Shown here: one piece after another, positions 6,140 to 63,948 of the stretch
How the letters are laid out: every line of letters begins with the position of its first letter
Numbering within the stretch: the first letter of the stretch is position 1
Source: Oscillospiraceae bacterium
Lineage (GTDB): Bacteria > Bacillota > Clostridia > Oscillospirales > Ruminococcaceae
Length of the DNA: 64,000 nucleotides
Direction of reading: 5' to 3'
Assembly (NCBI GenBank): GCA_045591925.1
Contig: JAZNTW010000013.1
Span: 13,776 to 77,775, forward strand
The notes under the pieces: generated by a model
Database searches by the model: none
What the model was told of the DNA's origin: nothing
The model's input: only the letters and a program-made list of their open reading frames with translations
Position numbers and translations under genes: made by a program

Positions 6140-6153
6140 GGGAGGCTATCGAT

Positions 6154-44131: not shown

Positions 44132-44152
44132 GGGGCGGGGCTGGGGCTGGGG
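44132..44152 (+). other. Canonical G-quadruplex-forming motif
   Basis: GGGGCGGGGCTGGGGCTGGGG: four G4 runs with 1-2-nt loops, inside a 462-nt non-coding gap. Confidence 0.6.
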
Positions 44153-49039: not shown

Positions 49040-49040
49040 A

Positions 49041-50315
49041 ATGAAAACAGCAGAACTTCGTGTGATCCCTGTCACGGAGCTGAAGCCGGCGGAATATAAC
49101 CCGCGCAAAAAGCTGAAGCCCGGTGACAAGGAATACGAAAAAATCAAAAACAGCATCGAGGAATTCGGCTTTGCCGATCCGCTGGTAGTCAATGCCGATA
49201 TGACCATCATCGGCGGACATCAGAGACTGACCGTAGCGACGGCGCTCGGATACACTGAGGTACCCTGCGCCGTGGTGGACATCGACAAGGTGCGGGAGAA
49301 GGCGCTGAATATTGCGCTCAACAAGATCACGGGTGCATGGGACGAGAGCCTTCTGGCAGAACTGCTCGAAGACATCCAGAACAGTGACTTTGATCTCGGA
49401 AAGACCGGCTTTGATCCGCCGGAGATCGAACAGCTTTTCAATCAGGTACACGACAAGCAGGTCAAAGAGGACAGCTTCGATGTGGCGGAGGAGCTGCAAA
49501 AGCCGACCTTCTCGCAGCCGGGAGATATCTGGATTCTCGGCAGGCACAAAGTCATCTGCGGTGACAGTACAGTCGCAGAAACCTATACAAAGCTGATGGA
49601 CGGGCAGAAGGCAAACCTTGTCCTGACAGATCCCCCTTATAATGTGGATGTTGAGGAGACCGCCGGCAAGATCATGAATGACAACATGAGTGACAGCGAT
49701 TTCTACAACTTCCTGCTTGCCGCCTATAAGTGTATGTATGACAGCCTCGCCGATGACGGCAGCATCTATGTATGGCACGCCGATACCGAGGGGCTGAACT
49801 TCCGCAGGGCATTCAAGGAGGCGGGATTCCAGCTTTCCGGCTGCTGTATCTGGAAAAAGAATTCACTGGTTCTCGGCAGGAGCCCCTATCAGTGGATTCA
49901 TGAGCCGTGTCTCTTCGGATGGAAGCAAAAGGGAAAGCACCAATGGTACGCAGACCGCAAACAGACGACCGTCTGGGAGTATGACAAGCCCAAAAGCAGC
50001 CCCGACCATCCGACCACAAAGCCGATCCCGCTGATGGCATATCCCATCAAAAACAGCACCATGACAAACGGTATCGTCCTCGATCCGTTCCTCGGCAGCG
50101 GTTCCACGCTGATTGCCTGCTGTGAGACAGACCGTGTTTGCCGGGGCATCGAACTTGATCCGAAATTCGTGGATGTCATCGTCAAGAGGTATCTGGCATG
50201 GTGTCACGAAAAGCAGACTGCCGAGGTCGCATATGTTATCCGTGACGGGCAGAAGCTGTCTTTCGATGAAGCAGTCGCAACGATGCCGACAGAGGACGGT
50301 GATGCCAATGGATGA
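49041..50315 (+). CDS. ParB-like nuclease domain fused to N6/N4 DNA methyltransferase
   Basis: ParB-N pattern (IPVTELKPAEYNPRK...IIGGHQR), then VLTDPPYN and LDPFLGSGST. Confidence 0.85.
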   Translation: MKTAELRVIPVTELKPAEYNPRKKLKPGDKEYEKIKNSIEEFGFADPLVVNADMTIIGGHQRLTVATALGYTEVPCAVVDIDKVREKALNIALNKITGAWDESLLAELLEDIQNSDFDLGKTGFDPPEIEQLFNQVHDKQVKEDSFDVAEELQKPTFSQPGDIWILGRHKVICGDSTVAETYTKLMDGQKANLVLTDPPYNVDVEETAGKIMNDNMSDSDFYNFLLAAYKCMYDSLADDGSIYVWHADTEGLNFRRAFKEAGFQLSGCCIWKKNSLVLGRSPYQWIHEPCLFGWKQKGKHQWYADRKQTTVWEYDKPKSSPDHPTTKPIPLMAYPIKNSTMTNGIVLDPFLGSGSTLIACCETDRVCRGIELDPKFVDVIVKRYLAWCHEKQTAEVAYVIRDGQKLSFDEAVATMPTEDGDANG

Positions 50316-51111
50316 GCTGAAGCCTCAGTTTCATGTGGTTTCGCTGTCCGGCGGGAAAGACAGCACAGCGATGCTCCTGAAAATGCTCGAAATGGGGATG
50401 CAGGTCGATTTGGTGTTATTCTGCGATACACGTCTGGAATTCCCACAAATCTATACGCATCTACGAAAAATCGAGGAAAACACCGGCATCAAAATTACAA
50501 CCGTCAAGAGCGAATACACATTTGAGTATCTTATGCTCCATAAGCCCATCAAGCGGAAGAAGCCGGAACTGCGCGGCAAGACCGGGTATAGTTGGGCGGG
50601 GCCGCTGATGCGGTGGTGTACCAATCTTCTGAAAACCGTACCTCGTGAGAAATATCTCAGTGAACTGCGGAAGAAGTACACCGTGATCGAGTACATCGGC
50701 ATTGCCGCCGATGAGACGGAGCGCATCATGCACAAGTGCAATAGCCGACCGAATGTCCGTCTGCCGCTTGTGGAGTGGGGCATGACGGAAGCCGACTGCC
50801 TGCAATACTGCAAGGAGCGCGGCTATGACTGGGGCGGTCTGTATGAGAAGTTCGGAAGGGTGTCCTGCTGGTGCTGTCCGCTGCAGCCGCTGAACGAGCT
50901 GCGAATCCTCTATTTCGATTTTCCCGACCTCTGGGAACAGCTCAGAGCTTGGGATGACAAAACATGGCGCACCTTCAAGCCCGGCTGGTCAGTCCGGAAA
51001 CTGGAGGCGCGTTTTGATTTTGAGCTGGAATGGCAGACAGACGGTAATCAGCTCGGCACAAAGGAATTCCGCAAGGCACTGAAAAAGAGACTGGAGGGTG
51101 TCGATGGCTGA
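50308..51111 (+). CDS. PAPS-reductase-like PP-loop ATPase
   Basis: ATG 50308 overlapping the previous gene. SLSGGKDST PP-loop. Confidence 0.75.
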   Translation: MDELKPQFHVVSLSGGKDSTAMLLKMLEMGMQVDLVLFCDTRLEFPQIYTHLRKIEENTGIKITTVKSEYTFEYLMLHKPIKRKKPELRGKTGYSWAGPLMRWCTNLLKTVPREKYLSELRKKYTVIEYIGIAADETERIMHKCNSRPNVRLPLVEWGMTEADCLQYCKERGYDWGGLYEKFGRVSCWCCPLQPLNELRILYFDFPDLWEQLRAWDDKTWRTFKPGWSVRKLEARFDFELEWQTDGNQLGTKEFRKALKKRLEGVDG

Positions 51112-51883
51112 TGTGAAATGCGTTTTACTGCATGATAATTTCCAAAACTTCAAAGGCTACAACATCCCGAAGGCGCAGCTTGTTATCGCAGACATCCCGT
51201 ATAACATCGGCGGCGATTTTTATGCCAGCCGTCCCGACTGGTATGTAGACGGCGACAATCAGAACGGCGAAAGCAGCAAAGCACACAAGGCTGCATTTCA
51301 CACGGACTACACCTTTAACATCGCTGAATACTTCGCCTTCTGTAACCGACTGCTCAAAAAAGAGCCGTCCAAAGGTGAAAAGGACGCTCCGTGTATGATC
51401 GTGTTCTGCGCCTTTCAGCAGATACCGAAGGTCATCCGGCAGGCGGAGAAATACGGCTTCAAGAAGTATCAGTTTTTGTGCTTTATGAAGAATTATAGTC
51501 CGCAGGTGCTGAAAGCGAACATGAGGATCGTGGGAGCAACAGAATATGCACTGGTGCTTTACAGAAACAAGCTGCCGAAGTTCCGCAATACCGATGCGGA
51601 CGGCAAGCGGCACATGATCTTCGACCACTTCGACTGGGTGCGTGACGGCAGGGATATCCCGAAGATACATCCGAGCCAAAAGCCGGTGAATCTTCTGAAA
51701 CGGCTGATCGGTATTTTTACCGATGAGGGCGATGTGGTTATCGATCCCTGCGCCGGTTCAGGCTCTACGCTGCGTGCGGCGAGGGAGCTTGGCAGACACA
51801 GCTACGGCTTTGAAGTCAGCAGGGATTTTTACAACAAAGCCTGTGAGCAGATGCTTGGGGAGGTGCTGGATGACAAAGCATGA
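51104..51883 (+). CDS. N6/N4 DNA methyltransferase
   Basis: VIADIPYN (DPPY variant) and SQKPVNLLKRLI...VIDPCAGSGST. Confidence 0.8.
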   Translation: MADVKCVLLHDNFQNFKGYNIPKAQLVIADIPYNIGGDFYASRPDWYVDGDNQNGESSKAHKAAFHTDYTFNIAEYFAFCNRLLKKEPSKGEKDAPCMIVFCAFQQIPKVIRQAEKYGFKKYQFLCFMKNYSPQVLKANMRIVGATEYALVLYRNKLPKFRNTDADGKRHMIFDHFDWVRDGRDIPKIHPSQKPVNLLKRLIGIFTDEGDVVIDPCAGSGSTLRAARELGRHSYGFEVSRDFYNKACEQMLGEVLDDKA

Positions 51884-52076
51884 ATGTGCGGTCGTGACCG
51901 CGTACACAGAGATTTCGATGCTGAAAGGCGATGATCTGAAATATCTGTATAATTACCTTTCCGGCTTCATCGGCAGACCGGTGTATACACACGAGATTCC
52001 TGCGGTGGCGGCAGCTTATAGGAAACAGATCAGAGAGGATTTCCTTGCGATATGCAGGAATGCGACCGATGCCTGA
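51870..52076 (+). CDS. Hypothetical small protein
   Basis: 68-aa ORF with GGGGAGG upstream, overlapping both neighbours. Confidence 0.5.
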   Translation: MTKHECAVVTAYTEISMLKGDDLKYLYNYLSGFIGRPVYTHEIPAVAAAYRKQIREDFLAICRNATDA

Positions 52077-52704
52077 CCTTGTAAAAAGCATCGGCTACGA
52101 TCAGGGCGAGATCATCCGGAACATTCTAAAGCTCCATGTGCCGGAGGGAAGAATCGATTGCGATCCGACCTTCAGCACAGGGGCTTTCTACAATGGAACG
52201 GACATTGCCCTGCCGCAGTACCGCTTTGATATCTTTCCGCAGCGGAGCGATGTAGTACAGTCGGATGCAAGGCATCTTCCGCTTGCAGACAGCAGTATTT
52301 CCTGCATGATGCTCGATCCGCCGTTTTTAGCGACCAAAGGAAAATCGCTGAGCAGAACTGACGGCAACATCATCAACAGGCGTTTTGGTGTATATCCCGA
52401 TGAAAAGAGCCTACACCGATGCTATTCGGATATGCTTTCGGAGGCATACAGAGTCCTGAAACCGGACGGCATCCTGATCTTCAAGTGTCAGGACAAGGTC
52501 AGCAGCGGCAGGCAGTATCTGAGCCATGTTTATATCATAAACGAGGCGGTAAAGATCGGCTTCTATCCGAAAGACATCTTTGTGCTGCTTGCGAAAAGCC
52601 GACTGGTAGCTGACTGGCAAAAGCGGAATCAGAAGCACAGCCGCAAGTATCATGCGTATTTTATCGTGCTTCAAAAATCTGACAGGCGCATCAAGTACGT
52701 CTGA
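52069..52704 (+). CDS. Putative small DNA methyltransferase
   Basis: IDCDPTFSTGAFY (motif I-like) followed by MLDPPF (motif IV-like). Confidence 0.5.
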   Translation: MPDLVKSIGYDQGEIIRNILKLHVPEGRIDCDPTFSTGAFYNGTDIALPQYRFDIFPQRSDVVQSDARHLPLADSSISCMMLDPPFLATKGKSLSRTDGNIINRRFGVYPDEKSLHRCYSDMLSEAYRVLKPDGILIFKCQDKVSSGRQYLSHVYIINEAVKIGFYPKDIFVLLAKSRLVADWQKRNQKHSRKYHAYFIVLQKSDRRIKYV

Positions 52705-52718
52705 GTCAGGAGGAATAA

Positions 52719-55079
52719 ATGAAAACAAAACATCTGACGCTCGGCAGCCTGTTTGACGGCTCCGGCGGCTTTCCGCTTGGCGGCATCCTCGCAGGGATCG
52801 AGCCGAAGTGGAGCAGCGAAATTGAACCTTTCCCGGTACTTGTCACGCACAGGCGTCTGCCGGGGGTAAAGCACTACGGCGATGTATCTACGCTGAACGG
52901 CGCGGAGCTTCCGCCGGTAGATATCATCACCTTCGGCAGCCCGTGCCAAGACCTGTCCATTGCGGGCAAGCGTGCCGGAATCCATCACGGTGATCGGTCG
53001 AACCTGTTCTTTCAGGCGATCCGTATCATCAAAGAAATGAGGGATGCAACAAATGGACAATACCCGCGATACTGCGTCTGGGAGAACGTCCCCGGCGCTT
53101 TCTCCTCCAACGGAGGAAATGACTTCAAAGCTGTCCTCGAAGCAGTTATCGGAGTTAAAGAAGAAGGGATCGAGGTGCCTGCGCCTGAAAATCACAGATG
53201 GGCAAAAGCAGACGTATATCTGGGAGACAGATGGAGCGTGGCTTACCGAGTTTTCGATGCTCAATACTGGGGTGTCCCCCAGCGAAGAGCAAGAATCTAC
53301 CTTATCGCAGATTTTGCTGGCGGAAGTGCCGGAGAAGTATTATTTAAGTCCGAAGGCGTGTCTGGGTATACTCCGCAGGGCTTCCGTGCGTGGCAAGGAG
53401 TTGCCGGAGGTGCTGCGGAAAGCGCTGGAGAGACAGGCGGGCGGTCTGACGCTGGAGGTGGAACCCTCTGCCTGAATCCGCAGGGCAATTCCGGTGTCGG
53501 CATCACCGAGGACAAAGCGCTTGCGCTGGTCGCTCAGGATCATGGCAATCATCCTGCGGTGCTTCACGCAGTCGGCATTGACGGCTACAATGCCGCAGTG
53601 ACCGATGATACCGCAGCAACGCTCGGTGTAAATTGCGGAATGTCAACCGGCAGAAACGGTGTCCTACAGGCGGCGGGATTCTCAACGGAACACAGCGCAA
53701 AGGCTCGGAGCATCGGCTACGAGGAGGAAGTCTCCCCGACGCTGAGAGCCGGTGTCGTTCCGGCGGCACTCTCGGTCGAAAACCATCCGACAGACGGTCG
53801 CGTAAAGATTCGTGAGGATGACACCTGCCAGACTCTTTGCAGCCGAGCCGGAACAGGCGGAAATAATGTGCCGCTTGTCGCTGAACCTGTCACATTGAAG
53901 ATCAGGTCAGGATGTGCAGGCGGCGGCAAGGGCGCTCTTTGGCAGACCGATAAATCTGCAACGCTCGGAACGAATAATGACCAGACGCTCTTTCAGCCGG
54001 AAATCAAAGCCTTCGGTGTATGCAGCAAGCATTCCAATGCGATGATGTCAGACAATCCGCACAGCGGTTTCTATGAAGCGACTACAAGCAGAACACTCGA
54101 CCAAAGTGGCGGTCATGCGATATCAAGCAATCAGGGCGGCATCTGCGTGGTAGCACCTGCGCCGGAGACATTCGATGTGCGTTTCACATCTGACGGCACA
54201 AAGAATGCACGTGGGCATTGCTACCCGACGGACATTTCCCGATGCCTTGATACAAGTGAGGCAAATCCGGACAGTAATCACGATGGAGTTGCAGTGGTTG
54301 CGCTTGAACCGGGGGCTGCATCCCGTGTCGGCGGTCATGTATATAGTGACGGCAAAAGCGGAACGCTCCGTGCCAATGCCGGAGATAATCAGCAGGCTGT
54401 TGTGATGCCTGAAACATTCTCCCTGCAAGGCTCAATGATCGGACGCTCGGATGAGAACGGGCCGCAGGGTGACGGCATCAACGAGGATGTGTGCTTTACG
54501 CTGAATACAACGGACAGGCACGCTGTCGCCGCACCTGATCCGGCTTACGCAATTTCCCGTGACAATCACTTCGCCGTTTCGGAGGATGTATCTGTCACGG
54601 CGGTGGCAAGAGGTCCTGCGGCAGTCGCAGCACCGGCAGACCACTATTGCACCAGTAAAAATTCCCACCACACAGTGGCGGCACACGAACAGGCAAACAC
54701 GCTGGTCGCTTCCGACTGGAAAGATCCTCCGCTTGTGAACGACCTTCCGAATGACGAGCCGGTATATATCGTTCGCCGTCTGACTCCGGTGGAGTGCGCC
54801 AGATTGCAGGGATTCCCTGACTGGTGGTGTGCCGACCTTGCAATTACTGATCCTTCCGATGAGGAGATCGCTTTCTGGACGGAGGTCTGGGAAACATGGC
54901 GGCAAATCACCAATCCCAAGGGCAAGCCAAAAACGGAAAAGCAGATCAGAAAATGGTTGGCTGATCCGTACACGGATTCAGCGGAGTACAAGCTGTGGGG
55001 CAACGGTGTCTCAGAGCCGGTCGTATACTTCGTGCTTTCCGGCATCGCATGGGCAGCGCAGAGAGATACACAAAAGTGA
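52719..55079 (+). CDS. DNA (cytosine-5)-methyltransferase with greatly expanded variable region
   Basis: Motif I LFDGSGG, IV GSPCQDLS, VI ENVPG, VIII QRRARIYL, IX RLTPVECARLQGFP, X GNGVSEP. About 490 aa lie between motifs VIII and IX. Confidence 0.9.
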   Translation: MKTKHLTLGSLFDGSGGFPLGGILAGIEPKWSSEIEPFPVLVTHRRLPGVKHYGDVSTLNGAELPPVDIITFGSPCQDLSIAGKRAGIHHGDRSNLFFQAIRIIKEMRDATNGQYPRYCVWENVPGAFSSNGGNDFKAVLEAVIGVKEEGIEVPAPENHRWAKADVYLGDRWSVAYRVFDAQYWGVPQRRARIYLIADFAGGSAGEVLFKSEGVSGYTPQGFRAWQGVAGGAAESAGETGGRSDAGGGTLCLNPQGNSGVGITEDKALALVAQDHGNHPAVLHAVGIDGYNAAVTDDTAATLGVNCGMSTGRNGVLQAAGFSTEHSAKARSIGYEEEVSPTLRAGVVPAALSVENHPTDGRVKIREDDTCQTLCSRAGTGGNNVPLVAEPVTLKIRSGCAGGGKGALWQTDKSATLGTNNDQTLFQPEIKAFGVCSKHSNAMMSDNPHSGFYEATTSRTLDQSGGHAISSNQGGICVVAPAPETFDVRFTSDGTKNARGHCYPTDISRCLDTSEANPDSNHDGVAVVALEPGAASRVGGHVYSDGKSGTLRANAGDNQQAVVMPETFSLQGSMIGRSDENGPQGDGINEDVCFTLNTTDRHAVAAPDPAYAISRDNHFAVSEDVSVTAVARGPAAVAAPADHYCTSKNSHHTVAAHEQANTLVASDWKDPPLVNDLPNDEPVYIVRRLTPVECARLQGFPDWWCADLAITDPSDEEIAFWTEVWETWRQITNPKGKPKTEKQIRKWLADPYTDSAEYKLWGNGVSEPVVYFVLSGIAWAAQRDTQK

Positions 55080-55156: not shown

Positions 55157-55339
55157 TCATTCAGATTTCTTGTCTCCGCCAAGCTTGATCTTTCCGTGCT
55201 TTTCCTCATATTTTTCAATGCAGTCACGGATCAGGATCAGAACCTGACTGTTGGCAGAACGACCTTCGTAATCAGCAACAACGTGAAGTTTATCAAGCAT
55301 CTCCTGTTCAATACGGATGGATACACTTTTAATAGCCAT
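55157..55339 (-). CDS. Ribbon-helix-helix (Arc/CopG-like) DNA-binding protein
   Basis: MAIKSVSIRIEQEMLDKLHVVADYEGRS is an N-terminal beta-strand + helix pattern typical of RHH. AT-rich islet on the minus strand. Confidence 0.65.
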   Translation of the reverse strand: MAIKSVSIRIEQEMLDKLHVVADYEGRSANSQVLILIRDCIEKYEEKHGKIKLGGDKKSE

Positions 55340-55389
55340 AAAACAACTTCCTTTCAGATATATTATGACTTTATTTTAGACCTGTTTTG

Positions 55390-55398
55390 TGGTATAAT
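55390..55398 (+). promoter_or_regulatory. Extended -10 promoter element upstream of the SLOG-like gene
   Basis: TGGTATAAT (TGnTATAAT) lies 55 nt before the ATG at 55453, in the divergent region shared with the RHH gene. Confidence 0.45.
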
Positions 55399-55452
55399 GT
55401 TTGAAATGGATATAAAGTGTATCTAAAATATATCTATAAGGAGTTGTGCGGT

Positions 55453-55791
55453 ATGAAAATAGCAATTATTGGCTCACGGGGACTTCATGTGAATGACCTT
55501 GAACGGTATTTGCCGGAGAATGTCACGGAAATCGTCAGCGGAGGAGCAAGGGGCATTGATTCGGATGCGCGGGCATATGCACAGGCACACGGCATTCCGC
55601 TGAAGGAGTTTCTGCCGGATTATGAACGCTTCGGCAGGAGCGCCCCGCTGAAAAGGAATCTGGAGATCATCGCCTATGCCGATGTGGTGCTTGCATTCTG
55701 GGACGGACAGTCCCGCGGTACAAAATATGTGATCGACCACTGCCGGGAACAGCGTGTTCCAGTCAGAGTTTTCGCACCGAGAAAGAAATAG
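55453..55791 (+). CDS. SLOG/DUF2493-like protein
   Basis: IAIIGSRG ... VSGGARGIDSDA ... FWDGQSRGT pattern. Confidence 0.55.
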   Translation: MKIAIIGSRGLHVNDLERYLPENVTEIVSGGARGIDSDARAYAQAHGIPLKEFLPDYERFGRSAPLKRNLEIIAYADVVLAFWDGQSRGTKYVIDHCREQRVPVRVFAPRKK

Positions 55792-55927
55792 TAATAAAGA
55801 AGCCATGCAGCAAATTGTGAACATTCTGATACTAAGTCAGGTGTTCTGCCGCAGGCTTCTTTTTTACACTCGTATTATGCACAATCAGTGGGGCGGATAT
55901 GCCCCGTACATTCTCCGTTTTACAGTC

Positions 55928-55956
55928 TTGCATTCCGGGGCAAAAGACGGTAATAT
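55928..55956 (+). promoter_or_regulatory. Cassette promoter copy 0
   Basis: -35 TTGCAT, 17-nt spacer, -10 TAATAT; GTACATT box upstream. Drives 56027-57655. Confidence 0.6.
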
Positions 55957-56026
55957 GTGACTACGAAAACGCCGCAGCCCAAGCGCACAGGGCGCAAGGG
56001 GCGGCAGTAAAAACGGAGGTTTTATT

Positions 56027-57013
56027 ATGGAAATCAAGTACAATATCGAAAAGAGTCAGCGCAAAGCACTGGCACAGAAAATCGCAGAGATCATCGGTGC
56101 GGAGGTCGAGTACCTCGGTGTTCCGAGCTGCGCCTACCAGATCGATTTCTTCACGCTGAGCAAGGACGCGGTCCTCAGCTTCACCGACCGCAGCGACACC
56201 GAGATCGTAGAGAAGGTTCTGGACGGGCTTGCCGATGCAGGCTACAACGGCGAGACGATCACTCCGCCGGCAGGAACGGATACCGCAACGGAAGCCGAAG
56301 AAAACTATGTCGAGATCGATGTGACCATTATCTCCGACACCGAGGAGGATACGCCGGACACCGATGAAGAGGTCACCAATGACAATGAGCCGGAGACCGA
56401 AACGGACGGCTTCCCAATTGCGGTAACGGTCGCTCTTCCGCTGGCTGACCACACGGTGCAGAGCCTCACGAACCTCATCTGCATGATCCACGCAAGGGGC
56501 GCACTTCTCAGCAAGGCGACCTGCGGAGCATTCGCCGCCGATAAGAGCCTTGTGGATGAGATTGGCGGACATGAGTTCCGCAGCACTTACGAGCTGATCG
56601 CCTTTATCAGAGAATGGGGTGAGACAAATCCGCCTCTGACCGGCATTTCCTTTGACAGCGACAAGCTCACCTTTGACGGCTTCGGTGAGGCGCAGGATGC
56701 CGACCATGTACAGACCTTCATGAAGCTCGCCGGCGCGATGAATCGTATGGCGCTTACGCAGAAGCGTGTGCAGGCAAAGGATGTGGACGATAGCAACGAG
56801 AAGTATTCGCTCCGCGTCTGGCTGATCCGCCTTGGACTGAACGGAGCAGACTGCAAGGCAGACCGCAAGCGCCTGATGGAGAACCTTTCCGGGCATTCGG
56901 CTTTCCGCAACGATGCGGAGCGTGAGCGTTGGGAAGCAAAGCAGAAGGCAAAGCGTGAAGCTGCCAAAGCCGAGCAGAACGAGGAGGACAATGACGATGC
57001 AGTTTCCGAATGA
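56027..57013 (+). CDS. Hypothetical 328-aa protein with acidic middle and conserved C-terminal module
   Basis: ACGGAGG upstream. The C-terminal SLRVWLIRLGLNGADCKADRKRLMENLSGHSAFRN is shared with the amidoligase. Confidence 0.65.
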   Translation: MEIKYNIEKSQRKALAQKIAEIIGAEVEYLGVPSCAYQIDFFTLSKDAVLSFTDRSDTEIVEKVLDGLADAGYNGETITPPAGTDTATEAEENYVEIDVTIISDTEEDTPDTDEEVTNDNEPETETDGFPIAVTVALPLADHTVQSLTNLICMIHARGALLSKATCGAFAADKSLVDEIGGHEFRSTYELIAFIREWGETNPPLTGISFDSDKLTFDGFGEAQDADHVQTFMKLAGAMNRMALTQKRVQAKDVDDSNEKYSLRVWLIRLGLNGADCKADRKRLMENLSGHSAFRNDAERERWEAKQKAKREAAKAEQNEEDNDDAVSE

Positions 57014-57242
57014 ACGACAGCTCCAAGCCCTGCGGGAGCGTTATCCTGCAGGCACACACATCCGCCTGAACCATATGGACGATCCCTATGCACCGGTTCC
57101 GGAAGGAACGATCGGCGAGGTTCAGTACATTGATGACGGGGGCAATATTCACATGATATGGAAGAACGGCAGAACGCTCTCGCTGATCGATGGGGTGGAC
57201 GATTTCACCATTATCACCAATGACAAGGAGGAAGGAAAATGA
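56991..57242 (+). CDS. DUF4314-like small protein
   Basis: GAGGAGGA upstream. YPAGTHIRLNHMDDPYAPVPEGTIGEVQYIDDGGNIHMIW pattern. Confidence 0.55.
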   Translation: MTMQFPNERQLQALRERYPAGTHIRLNHMDDPYAPVPEGTIGEVQYIDDGGNIHMIWKNGRTLSLIDGVDDFTIITNDKEEGK

Positions 57243-57655
57243 TCTACTTAGCCTACGGCTCGAATCTTCACATCGAGCATATGCAGCAGCGCTGCCCCAC
57301 CGCCGAAGTTCTCGGTACGAGCACGCTCCACGGATACCGACTGGTGTTCAACGGCGTGGCGACTATCGAGCCTGACCCCGACCGCAGCGTCCCCGTCCTA
57401 CTCTGGGACATCAAGCCCGCTGATGAGATCCCGCTTGACCGTTACGAGGGGTATCCTCGGCTCTACCGCCGGGATACTGTGCAGGTCGAGCTGGATGGAA
57501 AGACGGTCGATGCGATGGTCTACATCATGAACCCCAAGGGCATCGCACCGCCCAGCCCCTATTATTACGATGTGATCCGCAAGGGCTATAAAATGAATGG
57601 ACTGGACATAGCAGTGCTGGAACAGGCCCGGCAGGAATCCCTGACCAAACGCTGA
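57239..57655 (+). CDS. Gamma-glutamylcyclotransferase (AIG2/GGCT-like), copy 1
   Basis: YLAYGSNL N-terminus, DRYEGYP motif; ATGA overlap. Confidence 0.75.
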   Translation: MIYLAYGSNLHIEHMQQRCPTAEVLGTSTLHGYRLVFNGVATIEPDPDRSVPVLLWDIKPADEIPLDRYEGYPRLYRRDTVQVELDGKTVDAMVYIMNPKGIAPPSPYYYDVIRKGYKMNGLDIAVLEQARQESLTKR

Positions 57656-57750
57656 ACGCGCCACGTTCGCCCGTGTGGGGCTTTATAGGTATCCTTCGAC
57701 ATGTTACCCCGTTTCAGTTTCCGCCCCACACGGCACGTTTTACGGCGAGT
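57656..57750 (+). repeat. GC-rich imperfect palindromic intergenic element, copy 1
   Basis: CCGTGTGGGGC (57671-57681) pairs perfectly with GCCCCACACGG (57723-57733), followed by CACGTTTTACGG. Confidence 0.65.
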
Positions 57751-57808
57751 CATATAATGAACAAATAACGCCGCAGAATCGCCCGATATGATCTCTACAT
57801 TTAGCCGC

Positions 57809-57837
57809 TTGATAACCTCCGCAGGGTATGGTAATAT
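57809..57837 (+). promoter_or_regulatory. Cassette promoter copy 1
   Basis: -35 TTGATA, 17 nt, -10 TAATAT; CTACATTTAGCCGC immediately upstream. Confidence 0.65.
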
Positions 57838-57889
57838 GTCACACAACGGTAGGCGGATGCCCGCTAAACACCTGAACGGAGGAGATTAC

Positions 57890-58360
57890 ATGAGCAAGAA
57901 AAGATACTACCTCGCATACGGAAGCAATCTGAACCGCAAGCAGATGGAGATGCGATGCCCCGGTGCAAGGGTTGTCGGAACAGCATTGATTGAAGGCTAC
58001 GGGCTGCTGTTCAAGGGCAGCAAGACCGGATTTTACCTGACCATCGAGCCAAAAGCCGACGGTGTTGTTCCGGTCGCAGTCTGGGAGGTCACGGCAGAGC
58101 ATGAGCGAATGCTCGACCGCTACGAGGGCTGCCCTGTCTGCTACTATAAGAAAGAGATCAGCCTTCCGGTGCGCAGAGCGAAAAGCGGCAGGACACTCCA
58201 GACCAACGGCTTTCTGTACATCATGAATGAAAAGCGCCGGCTCGGAGAACCGACACCAAGATATTTCTGGACTTGTGTACAGGGCTACCGGTCATTCGGA
58301 TTCGATCCGGAATTCCTCTACGAAGCCTATGAACGCAGTACGAGGTATCTGTACCGATAA
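57890..58360 (+). CDS. Gamma-glutamylcyclotransferase (AIG2/GGCT-like), copy 2
   Basis: ACGGAGGAG upstream. YLAYGSNL and DRYEGCP. Confidence 0.75.
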   Translation: MSKKRYYLAYGSNLNRKQMEMRCPGARVVGTALIEGYGLLFKGSKTGFYLTIEPKADGVVPVAVWEVTAEHERMLDRYEGCPVCYYKKEISLPVRRAKSGRTLQTNGFLYIMNEKRRLGEPTPRYFWTCVQGYRSFGFDPEFLYEAYERSTRYLYR

Positions 58361-58554
58361 GAAAAGCGGCGGCATGGCGGGGATCGCTCCCCGCTGTCCT
58401 GACCGCTGATTTTATACCTCACTGGGGGCCTCCGAAAATGAGAGATCCTATTCCATTGTATCCAAGTTTACCATAAAAACGCAAGGATATCAAGTATGTA
58501 AAAGTACCAGAGATACGGCAAAAATACACCGAAATGATCTGTACATTTAGCCGC

Positions 58555-58583
58555 TTGATATATCCTCCGAAAGACGGTAATAT
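58555..58583 (+). promoter_or_regulatory. Cassette promoter copy 2
   Basis: -35 TTGATA, 17 nt, -10 TAATAT; GTACATTTAGCCGC upstream. Confidence 0.65.
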
Positions 58584-58637
58584 GTGACACAACGAAAGGC
58601 AGACAGCCTTCCGAAAACCGAAACGGAGGATACAAAA

Positions 58638-59582
58638 ATGACTGAGAAGACCGCACAGCAGATTAACAGAATGAAGGAGCAGACCATCGGGGTTGAGGTT
58701 GAGATGAACAACATCACCCGAAAGGCTGCCGCAAAGCTCGCCGCAGAGTTCTTCGGCACCAACCGCACCGAGTACACAGGCAGCCGCAACGGCTACGAAA
58801 CCTACAGCGCATGGGACGCACAGGGCAGAGAGTGGAAGTTCCAGAAGGACGTCAGCATCGCAGGCCACGACAGCGAAAAGTGCGAACTGGTCACACCGAT
58901 CCTGACCTACACAGACATCGAAACCCTGCAGGAGCTGATCCGCCGCCTTCGCAAGGCGGGCGCAAAGAGCGACTACACAAGAGGATGCGGAGTTCACATT
59001 CACATCGGAGCGCAGGGACACACACCGCAGAGCCTCAGAAACCTCGCCAACATCATGGCAAGCCACGAAACACTGATCGCCGAAGCAATCAAGGTAGACC
59101 ACAGCAGAATGAACCGCTACTGCAGAACGGTCGACCCGAGATTCCTCGACCAGATCAACCGCAAAAAGCCCCGCACGATGGCACAGCTTGCGGACATCTG
59201 GTACGGCGCACAGGGATGCACCTACGGCAGAACCCACCACTACAACGACAGCCGCTACCACATGCTCAACCTCCACGCCACCTTCACAAAGGGCACGGTT
59301 GAGTTCAGACTTTTCCAGTTCGCACCGCCCGCAAACGGCAAGCAGAACGGCCTTCACGCAGGCAAGCTCAAGAGCTACATTCAGCTTTGCCTCGCAATGA
59401 GCCAGATGGCAAAGGACCTCAGAAGCGCAAGCCCCAAGGAACAACAGAAAGAAAACAAGGTTTTCGCAATGAGAACCTGGCTGATGAGAATGGGCTTCAT
59501 TGGCGACGAGTTCGCAACAGCAAGAGAGACCCTTACCGAAAACCTGACGGGAAACGCAGCCTTCCGATTCGGCAGACCTTAA
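58638..59582 (+). CDS. Amidoligase_2-family (glutamine-synthetase-like) enzyme
   Basis: ACGGAGGA upstream. TIGVEVEMNNI start and CGVHIHIG motif are as I recall them for the putative amidoligase family. Confidence 0.65.
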   Translation: MTEKTAQQINRMKEQTIGVEVEMNNITRKAAAKLAAEFFGTNRTEYTGSRNGYETYSAWDAQGREWKFQKDVSIAGHDSEKCELVTPILTYTDIETLQELIRRLRKAGAKSDYTRGCGVHIHIGAQGHTPQSLRNLANIMASHETLIAEAIKVDHSRMNRYCRTVDPRFLDQINRKKPRTMAQLADIWYGAQGCTYGRTHHYNDSRYHMLNLHATFTKGTVEFRLFQFAPPANGKQNGLHAGKLKSYIQLCLAMSQMAKDLRSASPKEQQKENKVFAMRTWLMRMGFIGDEFATARETLTENLTGNAAFRFGRP

Positions 59583-59703
59583 GGTCTGCCCTTCGGGGCG
59601 CAGAAACAAGCGGAACGGCACGGGCGCACACAGCGCCCACGGTCTCGGCTGTCGCCTCGGTCGGTGCTTCTGCTTCGCAGAGGTTGCCACTGGCAACCCG
59701 CAC

Positions 59704-59792
59704 CCCCGTGTGGGGCGGAAGGGGTATCCTCCGATTCGGTATCCCACCTCAGTCAACCGCGCCACACAACGCGACACGGCGCAATCGTGAGC
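59704..59792 (+). repeat. GC-rich imperfect palindromic intergenic element, copy 2 (variant)
   Basis: CGTGTGGGGCGG ... CCGCGCCACACAACG arms. The loop holds a direct GGTATCC repeat. Ends GACACGGCGCAATCGTGAGC. Confidence 0.55.
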
Positions 59793-59854
59793 AAAGCATA
59801 AAATGAACAACAAACCGCGCAGAATCGCCCTGAATGATCTGTACATTTACCGGG

Positions 59855-59883
59855 TTGCTATTTTTCGAGTAAAGAGTTAATAT
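59855..59883 (+). promoter_or_regulatory. Cassette promoter copy 3
   Basis: -35 TTGCTA, 17 nt, -10 TAATAT; GTACATTTACC upstream. Confidence 0.6.
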
Positions 59884-59923
59884 GTCACTACCGAAAGGAA
59901 AACATCGCAAAGGAGTCCTGAAC

Positions 59924-60187
59924 ATGACAAGCAAAGAACATATTGAAAGCCTGCGCCGCCATGGAGTACGCCTGATTGCAAAGGACGGCATGACCAGAGA
60001 AATCCCCGCCGACTTCCTCGAAACCACCACCAAGATGCTGAACGACATCGGAGCAAGGAAGATCACCTACAGCATTGCGGTTCCCGAAACCAACGAGGAG
60101 ATGCTCCTTGCGATCTGGGACTGCGGATACGCAGAATCGGGCAACGCCGATGAGATTCTCAGCCACACCGAGCGAACCGAAGAATGA
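59924..60187 (+). CDS. Hypothetical small protein
   Basis: AAAGGAG upstream; 87 aa. Confidence 0.6.
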   Translation: MTSKEHIESLRRHGVRLIAKDGMTREIPADFLETTTKMLNDIGARKITYSIAVPETNEEMLLAIWDCGYAESGNADEILSHTERTEE

Positions 60188-60238
60188 CAGCCTGCCGCCT
60201 TCGGGCGGCACACCACCAACTACATAGGAGGAATTCAA

Positions 60239-60442
60239 ATGAAAGACCGAGTAAACGAACCACGCAAATGCCCCAAGTGCGGACGCACCTACACCGAGCG
60301 ACCGGCGCTGTCCCGCTACGACAACGATACACTGATCTGCCCCGACTGCGGCACAAGAGAAGCTCTTGAAAGCATGGGCATCAGCATCGAGGAACAGGAT
60401 AAGATCCTCGGAATCATCCACGACAAGTACATTCCCGAATAA
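60239..60442 (+). CDS. Zinc-ribbon small protein
   Basis: TAGGAGGA upstream. CPKCG...CPDCG. Confidence 0.65.
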   Translation: MKDRVNEPRKCPKCGRTYTERPALSRYDNDTLICPDCGTREALESMGISIEEQDKILGIIHDKYIPE

Positions 60443-60533
60443 GGGGCGCACAGCGGGCGGTGTGGGGCTTCACGGCTCTGCGCCGCTTGTTTGTTGGGCG
60501 GATTCCGGGCGCGACACGGCGCGTTTGTGAGCC
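60443..60533 (+). repeat. GC-rich imperfect palindromic intergenic element, copy 3
   Basis: GGCGGTGTGGGGC ... GCGACACGGCGCGTTTGTGAGCC. Confidence 0.55.
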
Positions 60534-60613
60534 TCCTGTGGGGCGTTGGTATATGTACCAGTTATAACGGCGAAAATCGGCGATTCTTCTACGATTTATT
60601 TTGCACATAGGCG

Positions 60614-60642
60614 TGGACTTTTCTCAAAATAAGAGTTAACAT
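60614..60642 (+). promoter_or_regulatory. Cassette promoter copy 4 (variant subfamily)
   Basis: -35 TGGACT, 17 nt, -10 TAACAT. Same context (GGCGTGGACTT...AAGAGTTAA) as copy 7. Confidence 0.5.
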
Positions 60643-60691
60643 ACAGATGCCGAAAGGCACAAAGCACCCACATTTCAAGGAGGATACGAAC

Positions 60692-61042
60692 ATGAGAGAG
60701 AATGCATATTTTGAGGAAATGCGGCACAGGGAGAAGAACAGCGCGGAGACCTACCTTTTCCACCATTACAGCTACAGCCTTGACTACGGCTGCACGGTTT
60801 TTGAGCTTTTCAAGCTGCCGTTTTTCTGCCACATCGAGTTCATCGTGAGCACGCTCCGCAAGGCGGGCATCACCTCGGTGGTCATCACGGAAGCCAACGA
60901 GCATCTGTTCGGCATCCTGAACGAGTTTGCAAGGCTTGGCTGCACCGGCTTTGAGCCGGTAACGATCAGCAGATTCACAACTTGGGATCCGCACTGCCAG
61001 AACGAGCGCGAGCATCGTGACGGCATCCGCATTACACTTTGA
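60692..61042 (+). CDS. Hypothetical protein
   Basis: AAGGAGGA upstream; 116 aa. Confidence 0.6.
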   Translation: MRENAYFEEMRHREKNSAETYLFHHYSYSLDYGCTVFELFKLPFFCHIEFIVSTLRKAGITSVVITEANEHLFGILNEFARLGCTGFEPVTISRFTTWDPHCQNEREHRDGIRITL

Positions 61043-61092
61043 AAGCGATAAGGGGCAGGGCTTCGGTTCTGCCCCACCGAAAGGAGCAGAGC

Positions 61093-61368
61093 ATGAAACG
61101 ATATCCTTGGGATGAATACGCAACAATGCAGGGGCTTTGGGATATCCACTGCATCGGCGCAGGTGCCGCGCTGAAATACGGCGACCATGTGTTTGCGGTA
61201 TCGGATACCTACACCGGCTACGAAGCCGCCGTGTACAAGTTCACCGGCTCGGAGGAGGACGGCGATAAGGACTTCTGGGAGTGCGAGCTGAAACTGCAGG
61301 CCGCCTCTCCGGAGCCGTTCCCCGACGGCGGTCATGCGGTAGAGTGGTGCTTGAAGCAGCTCGGCTGA
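61093..61368 (+). CDS. Hypothetical protein
   Basis: GAAAGGAG upstream; 91 aa. Confidence 0.6.
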   Translation: MKRYPWDEYATMQGLWDIHCIGAGAALKYGDHVFAVSDTYTGYEAAVYKFTGSEEDGDKDFWECELKLQAASPEPFPDGGHAVEWCLKQLG

Positions 61369-61470
61369 CGGCGCACATTTGCACCACGCTGCCCCGTGTG
61401 CGGTTTTCCGGCGGTAAGCGTATTACTTGCCCCCCCGCGGAAAGCCGGCCCACACGGCGCGTTTGTGCGT
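61369..61470 (+). repeat. GC-rich imperfect palindromic intergenic element, copy 4
   Basis: CCGTGTGCGG ... CTTGCCCCCCCGCGGAAAGCCGGCCCACACGGCGCGTTTGTGCG. Confidence 0.65.
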
Positions 61471-61552
61471 GTTCTGACGCATTCTGCGGCAAGGCATAAT
61501 ATGTACAACAAATGGCGCAGATACGCCGATTTTGTTCTGTACATTTAGCCGC

Positions 61553-61581
61553 TTGATATACTCCGCAAGGTATGGTAATAT
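61553..61581 (+). promoter_or_regulatory. Cassette promoter copy 5
   Basis: -35 TTGATA, 17 nt, -10 TAATAT. The 37 nt upstream, up to and including the TTG of the -35 box, are identical to copy 6. Confidence 0.65.
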
Positions 61582-61641
61582 GCTACACAACGGCAAGGGC
61601 GGAACGCCCACCGGAATACAACCAAAACGGAGGATACCACC

Positions 61642-61965
61642 ATGAACCCCTACACGCTGAGAAATCACTTCACCCTGCTCGATTACAACACGGCGATCAG
61701 CCGCGAGGACTTCGAGAACAACTTCTGCAAGACCGCAGAGCGCATCACCTTCACCTTCAACGGCTGGGACGGCAAGAGCTACGATGGCGAGAGCCGCACA
61801 GCCCGCGTCTACCGCACCACGGTCAAGGGCTACGAGGATGTGCGCTTCATCAAGGTCGGCAAGCACCTCTGCTACATTGACGAGGACAGCGAGATCATCG
61901 AAAAGGCGACCGGCGTCGCCCACAAGGAAGCCGAGTGGCTGGTCGAGGTACAGAGACGAGGATAA
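61642..61965 (+). CDS. Hypothetical protein
   Basis: ACGGAGGA upstream; 107 aa. Confidence 0.65.
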   Translation: MNPYTLRNHFTLLDYNTAISREDFENNFCKTAERITFTFNGWDGKSYDGESRTARVYRTTVKGYEDVRFIKVGKHLCYIDEDSEIIEKATGVAHKEAEWLVEVQRRG

Positions 61966-62029
61966 GGCAGAAGGCGGAGCCCTTCCTGCGGGGAGGGCTT
62001 ACCGCAGAAAATATACGGAGGTTTTGAAC

Positions 62030-62413
62030 ATGAGCACGAATTCAAGAATCGGCATCCTGCACGAGGACGGCACCACGGAAACGATCTACTGCCACTGGGA
62101 CGGCTACCCCGAACACCAGATGCCCATCCTTACCGAGCATTACAACACCGCAGAGAAGGTCAAGGCGCTGCTTGCCCTCGGAGACATCAGCATCCTCGGT
62201 GAGCGCCTTGCGCCGGATGCGGACGAGCAGCACAGCTTCGAGAAGCCTGCGGAGGGCGTGACGGTTGCATACCACCGCGACCGCAACGAGCCGATGCAGC
62301 CTGCGGTCACCCACAAGAGCGTTGTTTCGCTGATGAGAGACGACTGGGGCATCCCGTATTACTACCTTTTCGATGAAAGGACGGGACAGTGGATTCCGCC
62401 GACCGAGGGCTGA
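62030..62413 (+). CDS. Hypothetical protein
   Basis: ACGGAGG upstream; 127 aa; internal ATG of track ORF 61784..62413. Confidence 0.65.
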   Translation: MSTNSRIGILHEDGTTETIYCHWDGYPEHQMPILTEHYNTAEKVKALLALGDISILGERLAPDADEQHSFEKPAEGVTVAYHRDRNEPMQPAVTHKSVVSLMRDDWGIPYYYLFDERTGQWIPPTEG

Positions 62414-62437
62414 CAAGTTCAGCCCTGCGGGGCTGAC

Positions 62438-62528
62438 TTGCGCCACGTTCGCCTGTGCGCGGTTTTCCTGCGGTGAGCGATAAACTTGCCCCTGCGGAAA
62501 GCCGCCCCACACGGCGCGTTTGTGCGCC
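62438..62528 (+). repeat. GC-rich imperfect palindromic intergenic element, copy 5
   Basis: TTGCGCCACGTTCGCCTGTGCGCGG ... CTTGCCCCTGCGGAAAGCCGCCCCACACGGCGCGTTTGTGCGCC. Confidence 0.65.
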
Positions 62529-62600
62529 TCCAGTGGGAATGGTGTACTATGTACAATAAATGACGTAGATACGCCGATTTTGTTCTGTACATTTAGCCGC

Positions 62601-62629
62601 TTGCTATTCCGGAAAGATCATGGTAATAT
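62601..62629 (+). promoter_or_regulatory. Cassette promoter copy 6
   Basis: -35 TTGCTA, 17 nt, -10 TAATAT. Confidence 0.65.
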
Positions 62630-62685
62630 GTGACACAACGGAAGGGCAAACGCCCAGCCGAATACAACAACGGAGGTACACCACC

Positions 62686-63051
62686 ATGACCAAGAAAAAA
62701 CTGAACGAGATCAAGACCACCCTGAACTTCCTGCGGAACGGCAGAGCCGCCACCGAGCAGATGACCGAAGAGACCTGCCTTGAGGTCTACGGTATCTCGA
62801 AGGCGCAGGCACTGAAAAACATGGACAGCAGCATCGCCAAATACGAGCGCGAGCTGCAGAGAGCCGAGCATCCGCTGGAGGGCATCGACAAGAAGGTCTA
62901 CGAGATCGCCGCAAAGCACCTGATTCTGGTAGCCGAGCGCGGAGACCTCGAAACCCGCCACTGCGACCGCGAGGACTTCATCGAGGTTTCGGTCTGGGGA
63001 CTGGAAGCAGCCCTGAAAGAAGCCTACGAGGCAGGACGCAAGAGCAAGTAA
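62686..63051 (+). CDS. Hypothetical protein
   Basis: ACGGAGG upstream; 121 aa. Confidence 0.65.
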   Translation: MTKKKLNEIKTTLNFLRNGRAATEQMTEETCLEVYGISKAQALKNMDSSIAKYERELQRAEHPLEGIDKKVYEIAAKHLILVAERGDLETRHCDREDFIEVSVWGLEAALKEAYEAGRKSK

Positions 63052-63113
63052 ACGAACGGAGCAGCGCAGCCCTTCCGCAGGGAGGGGCTGCCAAACCCGA
63101 AGGAGGAGAGAAC

Positions 63114-63293
63114 ATGGATACATACGCACAGCTTGAAATGCTGACCGCAGTCATTGCAAACCTGTCGGTTACGGGAACATGGACGGAGCGAGAAGTGATG
63201 GAAACGCTACTGGATGTCTTTGAGCCGAAGGAGCTTGAACAGCTCGGCTACGGCGACCGTGTGAATGCCTACTTGGAAGAGTACGGCGAATAA
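63114..63293 (+). CDS. Hypothetical small protein (59 aa, below the ORF-track cutoff)
   Basis: AGGAGGAGAGAAC before the ATG at 63114. Reads MDTYAQLEMLTAVIANLSV...EEYGE to TAA at 63291-63293. Confidence 0.55.
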   Translation: MDTYAQLEMLTAVIANLSVTGTWTEREVMETLLDVFEPKELEQLGYGDRVNAYLEEYGE

Positions 63294-63300
63294 CGCCGAC

Positions 63301-63393
63301 ACTTGCGCCACGTTGCCCTGTGTGGGGCTGTGCCGGGAAGATGCGTACAGCTTGCCCCTGCGGAAAGCCGCCTTACACAGCGCGACTGTGCGC
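63301..63393 (+). repeat. GC-rich imperfect palindromic intergenic element, copy 6
   Basis: TGTGTGGGGC (63319-63328) pairs with GCCTTACACA (63370-63379) through two G-T(U) wobbles. Same CTTGCCCCTGCGGAAAGCC core as copy 5. Confidence 0.65.
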
Positions 63394-63463
63394 GACCTGA
63401 ACGATGTACAATTCCGCCTGATTTTCCGCCTCATGTCTGGTACATTTATTTTGCGAAAAGGCG

Positions 63464-63492
63464 TGGACTTATCGCAGAAAAAGAGTTAATAT
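63464..63492 (+). promoter_or_regulatory. Cassette promoter copy 7 (variant subfamily)
   Basis: -35 TGGACT, 17 nt, -10 TAATAT. Confidence 0.5.
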
Positions 63493-63539: not shown

Positions 63540-63893
63540 ATGAAAATTCTAGTATGCGAACCCGGCAAGCACCCCTACGTCAAGGACATCGAACACACAC
63601 TTGAAAACCTTCAGGCTGAGGTGGACGGCTACATTCAGGCAATCTACCCCTTCGAGGAAGAGGTCGGTGTGATAGTCAACGAGGAGGGCCTGTTCCGCGA
63701 TGACCTTGCATGGAACAGAACGGTTGAGAAATACGGCCCGATCAAAGGTACCTTCTTCGTCTGCGGACTGGGCTTCGAGAATTTCACAGGGCTGACCGAT
63801 GAGCAGATCGAAAAGTACAAGGCAATCTTCTGGGAGCCTGAAATCTTCATCCCGACACCGAATGGCATGGTGGTGCTGCACATTATTGACTAA
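63540..63893 (+). CDS. DUF3846-like protein
   Basis: AAAAGGAG upstream. MKILVCEPGKHPYVKDIEHTLENLQAEVDGYIQAIYPF pattern. Confidence 0.6.
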   Translation: MKILVCEPGKHPYVKDIEHTLENLQAEVDGYIQAIYPFEEEVGVIVNEEGLFRDDLAWNRTVEKYGPIKGTFFVCGLGFENFTGLTDEQIEKYKAIFWEPEIFIPTPNGMVVLHIID

Positions 63894-63948
63894 AACAAAG
63901 GCGGGGCTGCCCTTCACCGGGCAGCCGAATGCCGAAAGGAGAAAATAC

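Follow-up and report, generated by a model that had tools for sequence, protein, structure and literature searches.

In T4-type phages, repeated cassettes of a sigma-70 promoter and a stem-loop, called PeSLs, occupy hyperplastic regions and take part in modular shuffling (Arbiol et al., 2010, PMC2839356; Comeau et al., 2014, PMC4122927). An array of comparable promoter and leader cassettes is described here from 64,000 nt of DNA of an Oscillospiraceae bacterium (assembly GCA_045591925.1, contig JAZNTW010000013.1, positions 13,776–77,775 of the forward strand). This whole stretch is called the window, and coordinates refer to it. The feature is real and widespread, and it is best read as regulatory-cassette-mediated modular shuffling. 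The array, which belongs to a gut bacterium with a genome of the Ruminococcus/Oscillospiraceae type, probably consists of autonomous sigma-A-type expression cassettes in an accessory, hyperplastic segment of a temperate siphophage, the repeats of which would at the same time offer portable homology for shuffling.

In the proposed design, each cassette would begin with a sigma-A-type promoter, having TTG(C/A)TA, a 17-nt spacer, a TRTG-like -16 element and TAATAT, located after a lineage-specific box (TCTGTACATTTAGCCGC or TTTTGCRNAWAGGCG). The promoter would be followed by a leader of 40–70 nt, which opens with a short stem-loop and closes with an AACGGAGG-type Shine-Dalgarno (SD) sequence, and by one to three small genes, often with an imperfect inverted repeat of ~100 nt in the cassette. 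The regulatory repeat would put unrelated small genes under common transcriptional and translational control, the leader hairpin would stabilise the mRNA, and short patches of homology would let phage or host homologous recombination insert, delete, permute or replace cassettes between related phages.

The array resembles PeSLs in several respects. Both have an intergenic repeat containing a promoter of the housekeeping-sigma type, a stem-loop, an SD sequence and a start codon, and both include GGGC..GCCC-type stems. Of the traits that characterise PeSLs, the promoter motif (nine copies versus 0.31 expected), the hyperplastic location, with the array clustered before small genes of unknown function, and junctions within motifs were all found, insertions, deletions and replacements between related phages ending within the modules. 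There are also differences. There is no sequence homology, and the present repeats belong to a temperate siphophage of a Gram-positive anaerobe, where they form one array of eight or more copies by the terminase genes, whereas PeSLs number ~50 copies genome-wide. The stem-loop is here in the transcribed leader, an extra 100-nt inverted repeat is present upstream, the boxes before the -35 are lineage-specific, and U-tract terminators are not evident beyond one weak candidate. In PeSLs the stem-loop serves as a terminator or attenuator, and recombination between neighbouring motifs gives encapsidated mini-circles. Because of the siphophage context and the unrelated motif, the array is regarded as a Gram-positive temperate-phage analogue of PeSLs, by analogy and not as a member of their family.

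Many small genes, each with a strong host-sigma promoter and a strong SD sequence, are also present in the takeover module of Bacillus phage SPO1 and in the early region of T7. In T7, RNase III cuts at irregular intercistronic hairpins, and the resulting 3' ends have a stabilising effect. Both regions are early ones whose transcripts have been mapped, and they belong to virulent phages, whereas the array belongs to a temperate phage and is described from sequence alone. No description of such cassettes was found in the literature on the phages concerned, and the paper on Candidatus (Ca.) Heliusvirales, to which they are related, does not mention promoters (PMC11283538). The array would extend shuffling via conserved regulatory cassettes beyond the T4-like myoviruses, whose hosts are Gram-negative; for no other group was a description of it found. 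Temperate phages of Ruminococcus and Oscillospiraceae are among the most prevalent viruses of the human gut, and a widely conserved consensus for promoter, leader and SD sequence in such hard-to-study hosts would be useful for annotation and for expression tools.

Promoter and leader repeats

The core pattern T[TG]G-N18-G[GT]TAA[CT]AT, which covers the -35 box, a 17-nt spacer and the -10 box, has nine matches in the window as compared to 0.31 expected from shuffles, and none in 103 kb of unrelated DNA. GKTAAYATRY, the word for the extended -10, is found 11 times in the window (1.22 expected). A profile hidden Markov model made from the copies recovers exactly nine of them, with E values of 1e-11 to 7e-21, and has no further match at E<=10. 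Eight of the nine lie within 55.9–63.5 kb, before genes for proteins of 59–328 amino acids (aa), most of which are domain-of-unknown-function (DUF) proteins. These eight, on the + strand, had been listed by the first-pass annotation of the window, and all were found at the positions given there, with the shared -35, 17-nt spacer and TAATAT. The count of eight is correct for the + strand, but it overlooks a ninth, inverted copy at 48558–48672. The -35 boxes on the + strand are TTGCAT (once), TTGATA (three times), TTGCTA (twice) and TGGACT (twice), and the -10 is TAATAT at all eight sites save 60637, where it is TAACAT.

The copies are not near-identical, as they had been called: ungapped pairwise identity over 75 nt ranges from 0.24 to 0.81 with a mean of 0.51, random pairs having 0.25. 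They fall into subfamily A (57809, 58555, 61553, 62601 and, in part, 59855), subfamily B (60614 and 63464) and an outlier (55928). The GTACATT box, said to stand at every site, is exact at six of the eight but altered at 57809 (CTACATT) and 60614 (GCACATA), and its distance to the -35 deviates at 55928 and 63464. A run of 37 identical nt is present as claimed, but between 61553 and 62601; since this is the matching pair, and since the second subfamily is 60614 with 63464, the copy numbers in the earlier description must have been 0-based.

The cores, with the genes that they would drive, are arranged on the + strand as follows. Cassette 1 (TTGCAT-17-TAATAT, 55928–55956) precedes genes for a 328-aa amidoligase-related protein (56027–57013), a DUF4314 protein (56997–57242) and a GGACT protein (57239–57655). 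Cassette 2 (TTGATA-17-TAATAT with a TGn extended -10, 57809–57837) serves a second GGACT gene (57890–58360), and cassette 3 (58555–58583) an Amidoligase_2 gene (58638–59582). Cassette 4 (59855–59883) is a hybrid, its upstream half being A-type and its spacer and -10 being B-type, and it is followed by genes for an 87-aa protein (59924–60187) and a Zn-ribbon protein (60239–60442). Cassette 5 (subfamily B, TGGACT-17-TAACAT, 60614–60642) stands before a gene with a weak DUF7698 match (60692–61042) and Nmad4 (61093–61368), cassette 6 (61553–61581) before genes for proteins of 107 aa (61642–61965) and 127 aa (phrog_1987; 62030–62413), and cassette 7 (62601–62629) before a DUF6900 gene (62686–63051) and one for 59 aa (63114–63293). 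Cassette 8 (subfamily B, 63464–63492) is followed by a DUF3846 gene (63540–63893) and by an open reading frame (ORF) running from 63950 past the window end. The ninth cassette, on the - strand (48558–48672), has the full design, with its -35 at 48629–48624, its -10 at 48606–48601, a leader hairpin and an SD sequence. It would drive a 62-aa ORF (48544–48356) between nrdG and a Zn-ribbon gene.

The ORF content agrees with what had been reported, i.e., small proteins (59–328 aa by the present count), two GGACT proteins and one Amidoligase_2. Several cargo ORFs are without any family match, and no cargo gene matched a PADLOC defence family; an anti-defence role of the cargo, which had been proposed, has no positive evidence in the sequences and is unsupported. 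The 328-aa protein (56027–57013) and the amidoligase (58638–59582) have a common C-terminal domain of ~70 aa (33% identity, E = 8e-12), and the former also matches the middle of the 801-aa PHROG 'amidoligase' profile. Because of the common domain and the PHROG match, the two cassettes may, with DUF4314 and GGACT, belong to a single system that has been split.

The logo drawn from 233 unique instances is TCTGTACATTTAGCCGC-TTG[C/A]TAT-N-[T]R[T]G-G/T-TAATAT-R, with a purine at position -16 in 99% and a conserved G-14, the G-14 and the -10 being partly fixed by the search pattern. Anchoring the instances on the upstream 17-mer alone is free of this bias, and GGTAATAT is then found at a fixed distance with at least 90% conservation. 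A TRTG '-16 region' of Gram-positive sigma-A promoters was reportedly described by Voskuil and Chambliss in 1998. A Gram-positive sigma-A promoter with a -16 element should have a TTGACA-like -35, a 17-nt spacer, TRTG from -17 to -14, and a TATAAT-like -10 with A-11 and T-7; the repeats conform to this, and the predicted promoter role is well supported by such sequence logic. In an A-type cassette, the upstream box (61501–61552, + strand) is composed of TGTACAACAAAT, a short stem-loop (GGCGCAGATACGCC) with ATTTTGTTC after it, and finally TGTACATTTAGCCGC. The same layout recurs at 62549–62600.

Two other assignments of these boxes were rejected. The consensus of the sporulation factors sigma-F/G/E/K, compared by eye, does not fit the -35, and subfamily B is without the GG. 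GTACATT was also considered as a UACAU cleavage site for the phage MazF-like toxin, of which UACAU is the usual target, and the coding strand shows no depletion of UACAU (37 vs 36.5 expected).

A stem-loop is located near the 5' end of the leader, for example CGG-AA-GGGC-AAAC-GCCC-AG-CCG at 62639–62660 (+ strand), and equivalents are present in eight of the nine cassettes. The leader motif and stem-loop are thus mostly present, as the earlier description had stated for all sites, but the motif fails at 60614 and there is no hairpin at 59855. The hairpin was judged by shuffle z-scores and by an inventory of helices. Over their first ~38 nt, 167 unique leaders are more stably folded than dinucleotide shuffles (mean z -1.72), and at least 10 different complementary helix sequences occur at the same leader position. 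Since leaders fold beyond shuffles and different helices occupy one place, selection on a 5'-proximal RNA hairpin is suggested, and this would lend indirect support to a transcription start just upstream. In Firmicutes, 5'-proximal hairpins stabilise mRNAs.

Because a consensus scan for terminators brings up a single weak candidate within the array, which is the short stem-loop of the A-type upstream box, read-through between cassettes is likely. G+C-rich hairpins occur after the stop codons of genes, both within cassettes and between them, at 59585–59604, 60193–60210, 61053–61076, 61974–62005, 63066–63091 and 63904–63925. They mostly have a four-base loop, often TTCG, and in one case a six-base loop, and none has a T-run; they could be stabilisers of mRNA 3' ends or attenuators.

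Cassette turnover and spread among related phages

Past ~30 kb, the genes of the window are phage-like and on the + strand, with an Arc-like gene and the 62-aa ORF (48544–48356) on the - strand. This part encodes a DUF2800 nuclease, an Enc34-type single-stranded-DNA-binding protein, PolA, DUF932, an SNF2 helicase, a MazF-like protein, a D5 primase-helicase, an SAM synthetase, an HNH protein and NrdD/NrdG, together with four DNA-methylase-type genes and a PAPS-reductase-like gene. Of 50,697 phage records, PV036458 alone is a near match (74.6% DNA match); it is a complete temperate siphophage which is classified in Ca. Heliusvirales and has synteny with the window. In PV036458 and most relatives, the array is placed between the C5 methylase and the terminase, and the TerS, TerL and portal genes are directly downstream. 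The TerL of promoter-bearing contigs is 65% identical to that of PV036458. The TerL, portal and major capsid markers of Ca. Heliusvirales (PMC11283538) lie beyond the window end, so that support for this affiliation comes via the relatives. No near (megablast) match was found among 72,556 plasmids. On the grounds of phage gene content, the PV036458 match and the terminase of relatives, and with no plasmid match, the element is by sequence a tailed temperate prophage related to Ca. Heliusvirales and not a conjugative element.

Promoter boxes of this type occur in more than 240 IMG/VR contigs overall, with 1–11 copies per locus. The A-type 17-mer, GTACATTTAGCCGCTTG, is present in at least 120 of these contigs, the B-type box in 37, and a third lineage-specific box, found in PV036458 with the same -35/-10 core, in 85. 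True matches in the genome collection are from Ruminococcus and Oscillospiraceae. Two of the arrays are in R. callidus ATCC 27760, in the chromosome segments 1.808–1.816 Mb and 1.960–1.968 Mb; as this strain is cultured and has a complete genome, the predictions are directly testable. Matches of the 17-mer in Vibrio, cyanobacteria and other unrelated taxa were dismissed, being at chance level in number and without the full promoter pattern. In one related locus (L037, 6235–6540) a promoter copy has a TTATACT -10, which is outside the search pattern, and copy numbers per locus are therefore lower bounds. Six array-bearing contigs (L123, L129, L134, L147, L149 and L164) are binned in metagenome-assembled genomes of Bacteroidales, Alistipes or Planctomycetota; these look like mis-binned phage contigs and not real hosts.

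The 16 proteins of the window and the promoter pattern were mapped on 45 loci, the related ones being designated by L-numbers. Gene order varies among them. A conserved core consists of the methylase, a promoter with the amidoligase-related and DUF4314 genes, a second promoter with the amidoligase, GGACT and Zn-ribbon genes, and a further promoter, after which variable cassettes follow. In most loci the GGACT gene stands after the amidoligase, but in the window and the relatives closest to it the gene comes first, with a promoter of its own; extra copies are found behind DUF3846 in L049, L003 and L019. The gene for the 127-aa protein has its own promoter cassette in 11 loci and none in the window, and Nmad4 is almost unique to the window. 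Altogether, 31 gene families occur directly behind a promoter and 111 inside arrays. The hotspot between methylases and terminase is a source of phage accessory genes, including amidoligase/GGACT, Nmad4 and DUF genes.

The junctions between relatives fall at a few kinds of place, i.e., at the -35 box, at the SD sequence or ATG, and around whole promoter modules. Promoter pairs with only the upstream gene in common are more alike upstream of the -35, those with only the downstream gene in common are more alike downstream, and the two profiles cross at the -35. For example, the sequence that follows the Zn-ribbon gene is the same in the window, L101, L114 and L049 as far as the end of TGGACTT, and beyond this point each locus has a different spacer, -10 and leader. 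L114 and L014 have one leader up to the ATG, before unrelated genes. A complete promoter module of 125 nt stands before the 127-aa gene in L101 and L042 and is missing in the window, and the upstream half of the promoter before this gene, with its joint inside the spacer, is A-type in some loci and B-type in others. The inverted copy in the replication module (48558–48672) implies that the cassette moves as a unit. The alignments thus reveal cassettes gained, lost, permuted and replaced at the repeats; the shuffling proposed by the first-pass annotation is borne out in this respect, and gene order is not fixed. Concerted evolution within a genome is not supported, orthologous promoters in L114 (~93% identity) being closer than paralogues in the window (~80%).

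Control of the array and competing explanations

Several facts weigh against autonomous sigma-A-type cassettes that also serve shuffling. The -10 is almost always TAATAT and does not drift around TATAAT, which could point to a dedicated factor, and the phage encodes a sigma-70-family protein. The array is without clear U-tract terminators, unlike PeSLs and morons, and the cassettes may for this reason not be insulated units. The ending of blocks at gene boundaries is partly expected from faster intergenic divergence. In the ~100-nt inverted repeat associated with many cassettes, covariation is not above a shuffled control (64/500).

The strongest alternative is a dedicated phage regulon, in which a phage factor would read or activate the promoters, the repeats would be kept because the factor recognises them, and shuffling would be a by-product; it is a serious possibility, though on balance a doubtful one. 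Candidate factors are a phage-encoded protein of the sigma-70/extracytoplasmic function (ECF) superfamily (30245–31087, + strand), an activator acting at the lineage-specific box, and a Q-like antiterminator loaded at the conserved transcript start. The sigma-70-family protein is above its NCBIfam cut-off, and at least nine of 16 IMG/VR contigs carrying this sigma also carry A-type or B-type boxes, as counted on partial contigs. The near-invariance of the TAATAT box would suit such a factor, as would the variation of upstream boxes by phage lineage with the core kept. The same applies to the absence of the module from the 25 kb of early genes for replication and modification upstream, apart from the inverted copy. 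Against this, the same -35/-10 core is present in PV036458 without any homologue of the window sigma at E<=1e-3, the core with TRTG fits an ordinary Firmicutes sigma-A promoter, unlike ECF promoters, and no activator or Q-like gene was identified in the analysis. The phage sigma was set aside as the dedicated factor, since its co-occurrence is partial and it is absent from PV036458 with the same core, and was kept as part of this alternative. The Arc-like repressor (55157–55339) was rejected as a regulator, being absent from most arrays and having inverted repeats (55363–55439) unrelated to the boxes.

The late genes of relatives also speak for a regulon. In 23 relatives, the same promoter precedes TerL via a leader of 110–140 nt with a U-tract terminator, which resembles the PR'-tR'-Q region of lambda and suggests, by analogy, antitermination control of late genes. 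This layout is not seen in the window, the cassettes of the array have no leader terminator, and no Q-like gene was identified. The TerL leader of L002 (~6090–6240) and of 22 other loci (e.g., L008, L011 and L032) has two hairpins, the second being GCAGACTTGC..GCAGGTCT, followed by TTTTTTGTT, with no Rfam match. In relatives, a U-tract terminator is also present between the array and TerS/TerL. Because of this terminator and the absence of the module upstream, the array is, judged by its layout, transcriptionally distinct from both neighbours. The early role that had been suggested for it is unsupported.

The classical morons of lambdoid phages carry a promoter and a terminator of their own around one accessory gene and, as illegitimate insertions, are not flanked by conserved sequence (Juhala/Hendrix, 2000, in the summary of PMC2839356). 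If the cassettes were morons, they would be expressed constitutively from the resident prophage and serve lysogenic conversion or superinfection protection, not lytic growth, and this is unlikely. The cassettes do hold variable accessory genes between conserved phage modules, each unit with its own sigma-A-like promoter that would be independent of the phage cascade. One unit (48558–48672) is inserted within a conserved module opposite to the surrounding transcription, and a true terminator separates the array from late genes in relatives. The array nevertheless departs from morons because its flanks are its conserved feature; U-tract terminators are not evident, and a cassette holds one to three genes. 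The cargo is without a known defence-family match, which does not favour a protective role, and constitutive activity of the promoter directly before TerL in 23 relatives would rest on the leader terminator alone.

It is rather improbable that the module, with or without the ~100-nt inverted repeat, is a mobile, portable promoter of gut Oscillospiraceae phages used in either orientation, which together with a dedicated factor would constitute a promoter-based, integron-like platform for gene capture, and the last copy of which would gate the late operon via the PR'-tR'-like leader terminator.

The inverted repeat and the surrounding prophage

The unit that recurs is larger than the promoter and leader that had been described. 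These were correctly recognised, but an imperfect inverted repeat of ~100 nt, located 60–110 nt upstream of the -35, is present in six intergenic regions of the window. It has the form GCCACGTTCGCC..GTGTGGGG..GGATAACTTG-like..CCCCACACGGCGCG before cassette 2 (57657–57748), is divergent before cassettes 4 (59686–59792) and 5 (60443–60533), and recurs before cassettes 6 (61377–61474), 7 (62436–62531; the best-folding copy, z = -2.9) and 8 (63301–63397). Cassettes 1, 3 and 9 are without it.

That this repeat is the active element, either in recombination that depends on site or structure, in the manner of integron attC sites or of miniature inverted-repeat transposable elements, or in RNase III-type processing, with the promoters as passengers, is very unlikely. 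Taken by itself, the repeat may serve in RNase III-type processing, protein binding or recombination, and an RNA structure is possible. Many cassettes have it at their 3' end, with a constant spacing to the promoter that comes next, and its profile has 95 matches in related loci. A 19-bp helix has 83.5% of its alignment cells paired, and the sequence block GCCACGTTCGCC and the loop motif GGATAACTTG are conserved. Integrons likewise have tandem small gene cassettes, many ending in an imperfect inverted repeat of 60–140 nt. However, fewer than half of the promoters have the element, the junctions are dispersed over the -35, the SD sequence or ATG and whole promoter modules and do not fall at one fixed point in the repeat, each cassette has a promoter, and the repeat is conserved in sequence and not in structure only. 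No IntI or other integron-type integrase is encoded in the 34 kb of phage DNA of the window (29–64 kb). The covariation result given above also weighs against this reading, and there is no strand preference, both strands folding equally well. No Rfam family was found in the phage part of the window or in three related loci.

A conjugative leading or establishment region, such as the array had been likened to as one option, here taken with single-strand (Frpo-like) promoters, is scarcely credible and already contradicted by evidence: long hairpins do stand upstream of promoters, and the Amidoligase, GGACT, DUF3846 and DUF4314 families are also carried by conjugative elements, but the whole context is that of a tailed phage by gene content and by the terminase and portal of relatives, the plasmid search mentioned above gave no near match, and the -35/-10 boxes are collinear in duplex DNA, independent of the hairpins.

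The prophage is set off from its host in composition. The G+C content climbs from ~0.40–0.46 to 0.51–0.56 at about 30 kb of the window. A step at 29200–30250 (from ~0.42–0.46 to above 0.52) is likely the left prophage/host junction. No integrase was found on this side of the prophage. The first genes on the phage side encode a DUF7768 protein (29367–30122) and the sigma-70-family protein (30245–31087). Within the replication module, a PemK/MazF-like toxin gene (39183–39677) overlaps with its 3' end the start of the D5 primase-helicase gene (39668), and no antitoxin was identified for it. A DNA-modification island (42387–55079) contains genes for the SAM synthetase, a ParB-N/N6_N4 methylase, the PAPS-reductase-like protein, two further N6_N4-type methylases and a 786-aa C5 methylase with a long insert.

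The modification island is separated from the array by a divergent pair of genes (55157–55873), encoding an Arc-like ribbon-helix-helix protein on the - strand and a YAcAr/SLOG protein on the + strand. Their control region contains inverted repeats (55363–55380/55422–55439), and the module was found in only six of the compared loci. It is closed by a long hairpin with a T-run (55791–55873, + strand), a U-tract terminator located directly before cassette 1.

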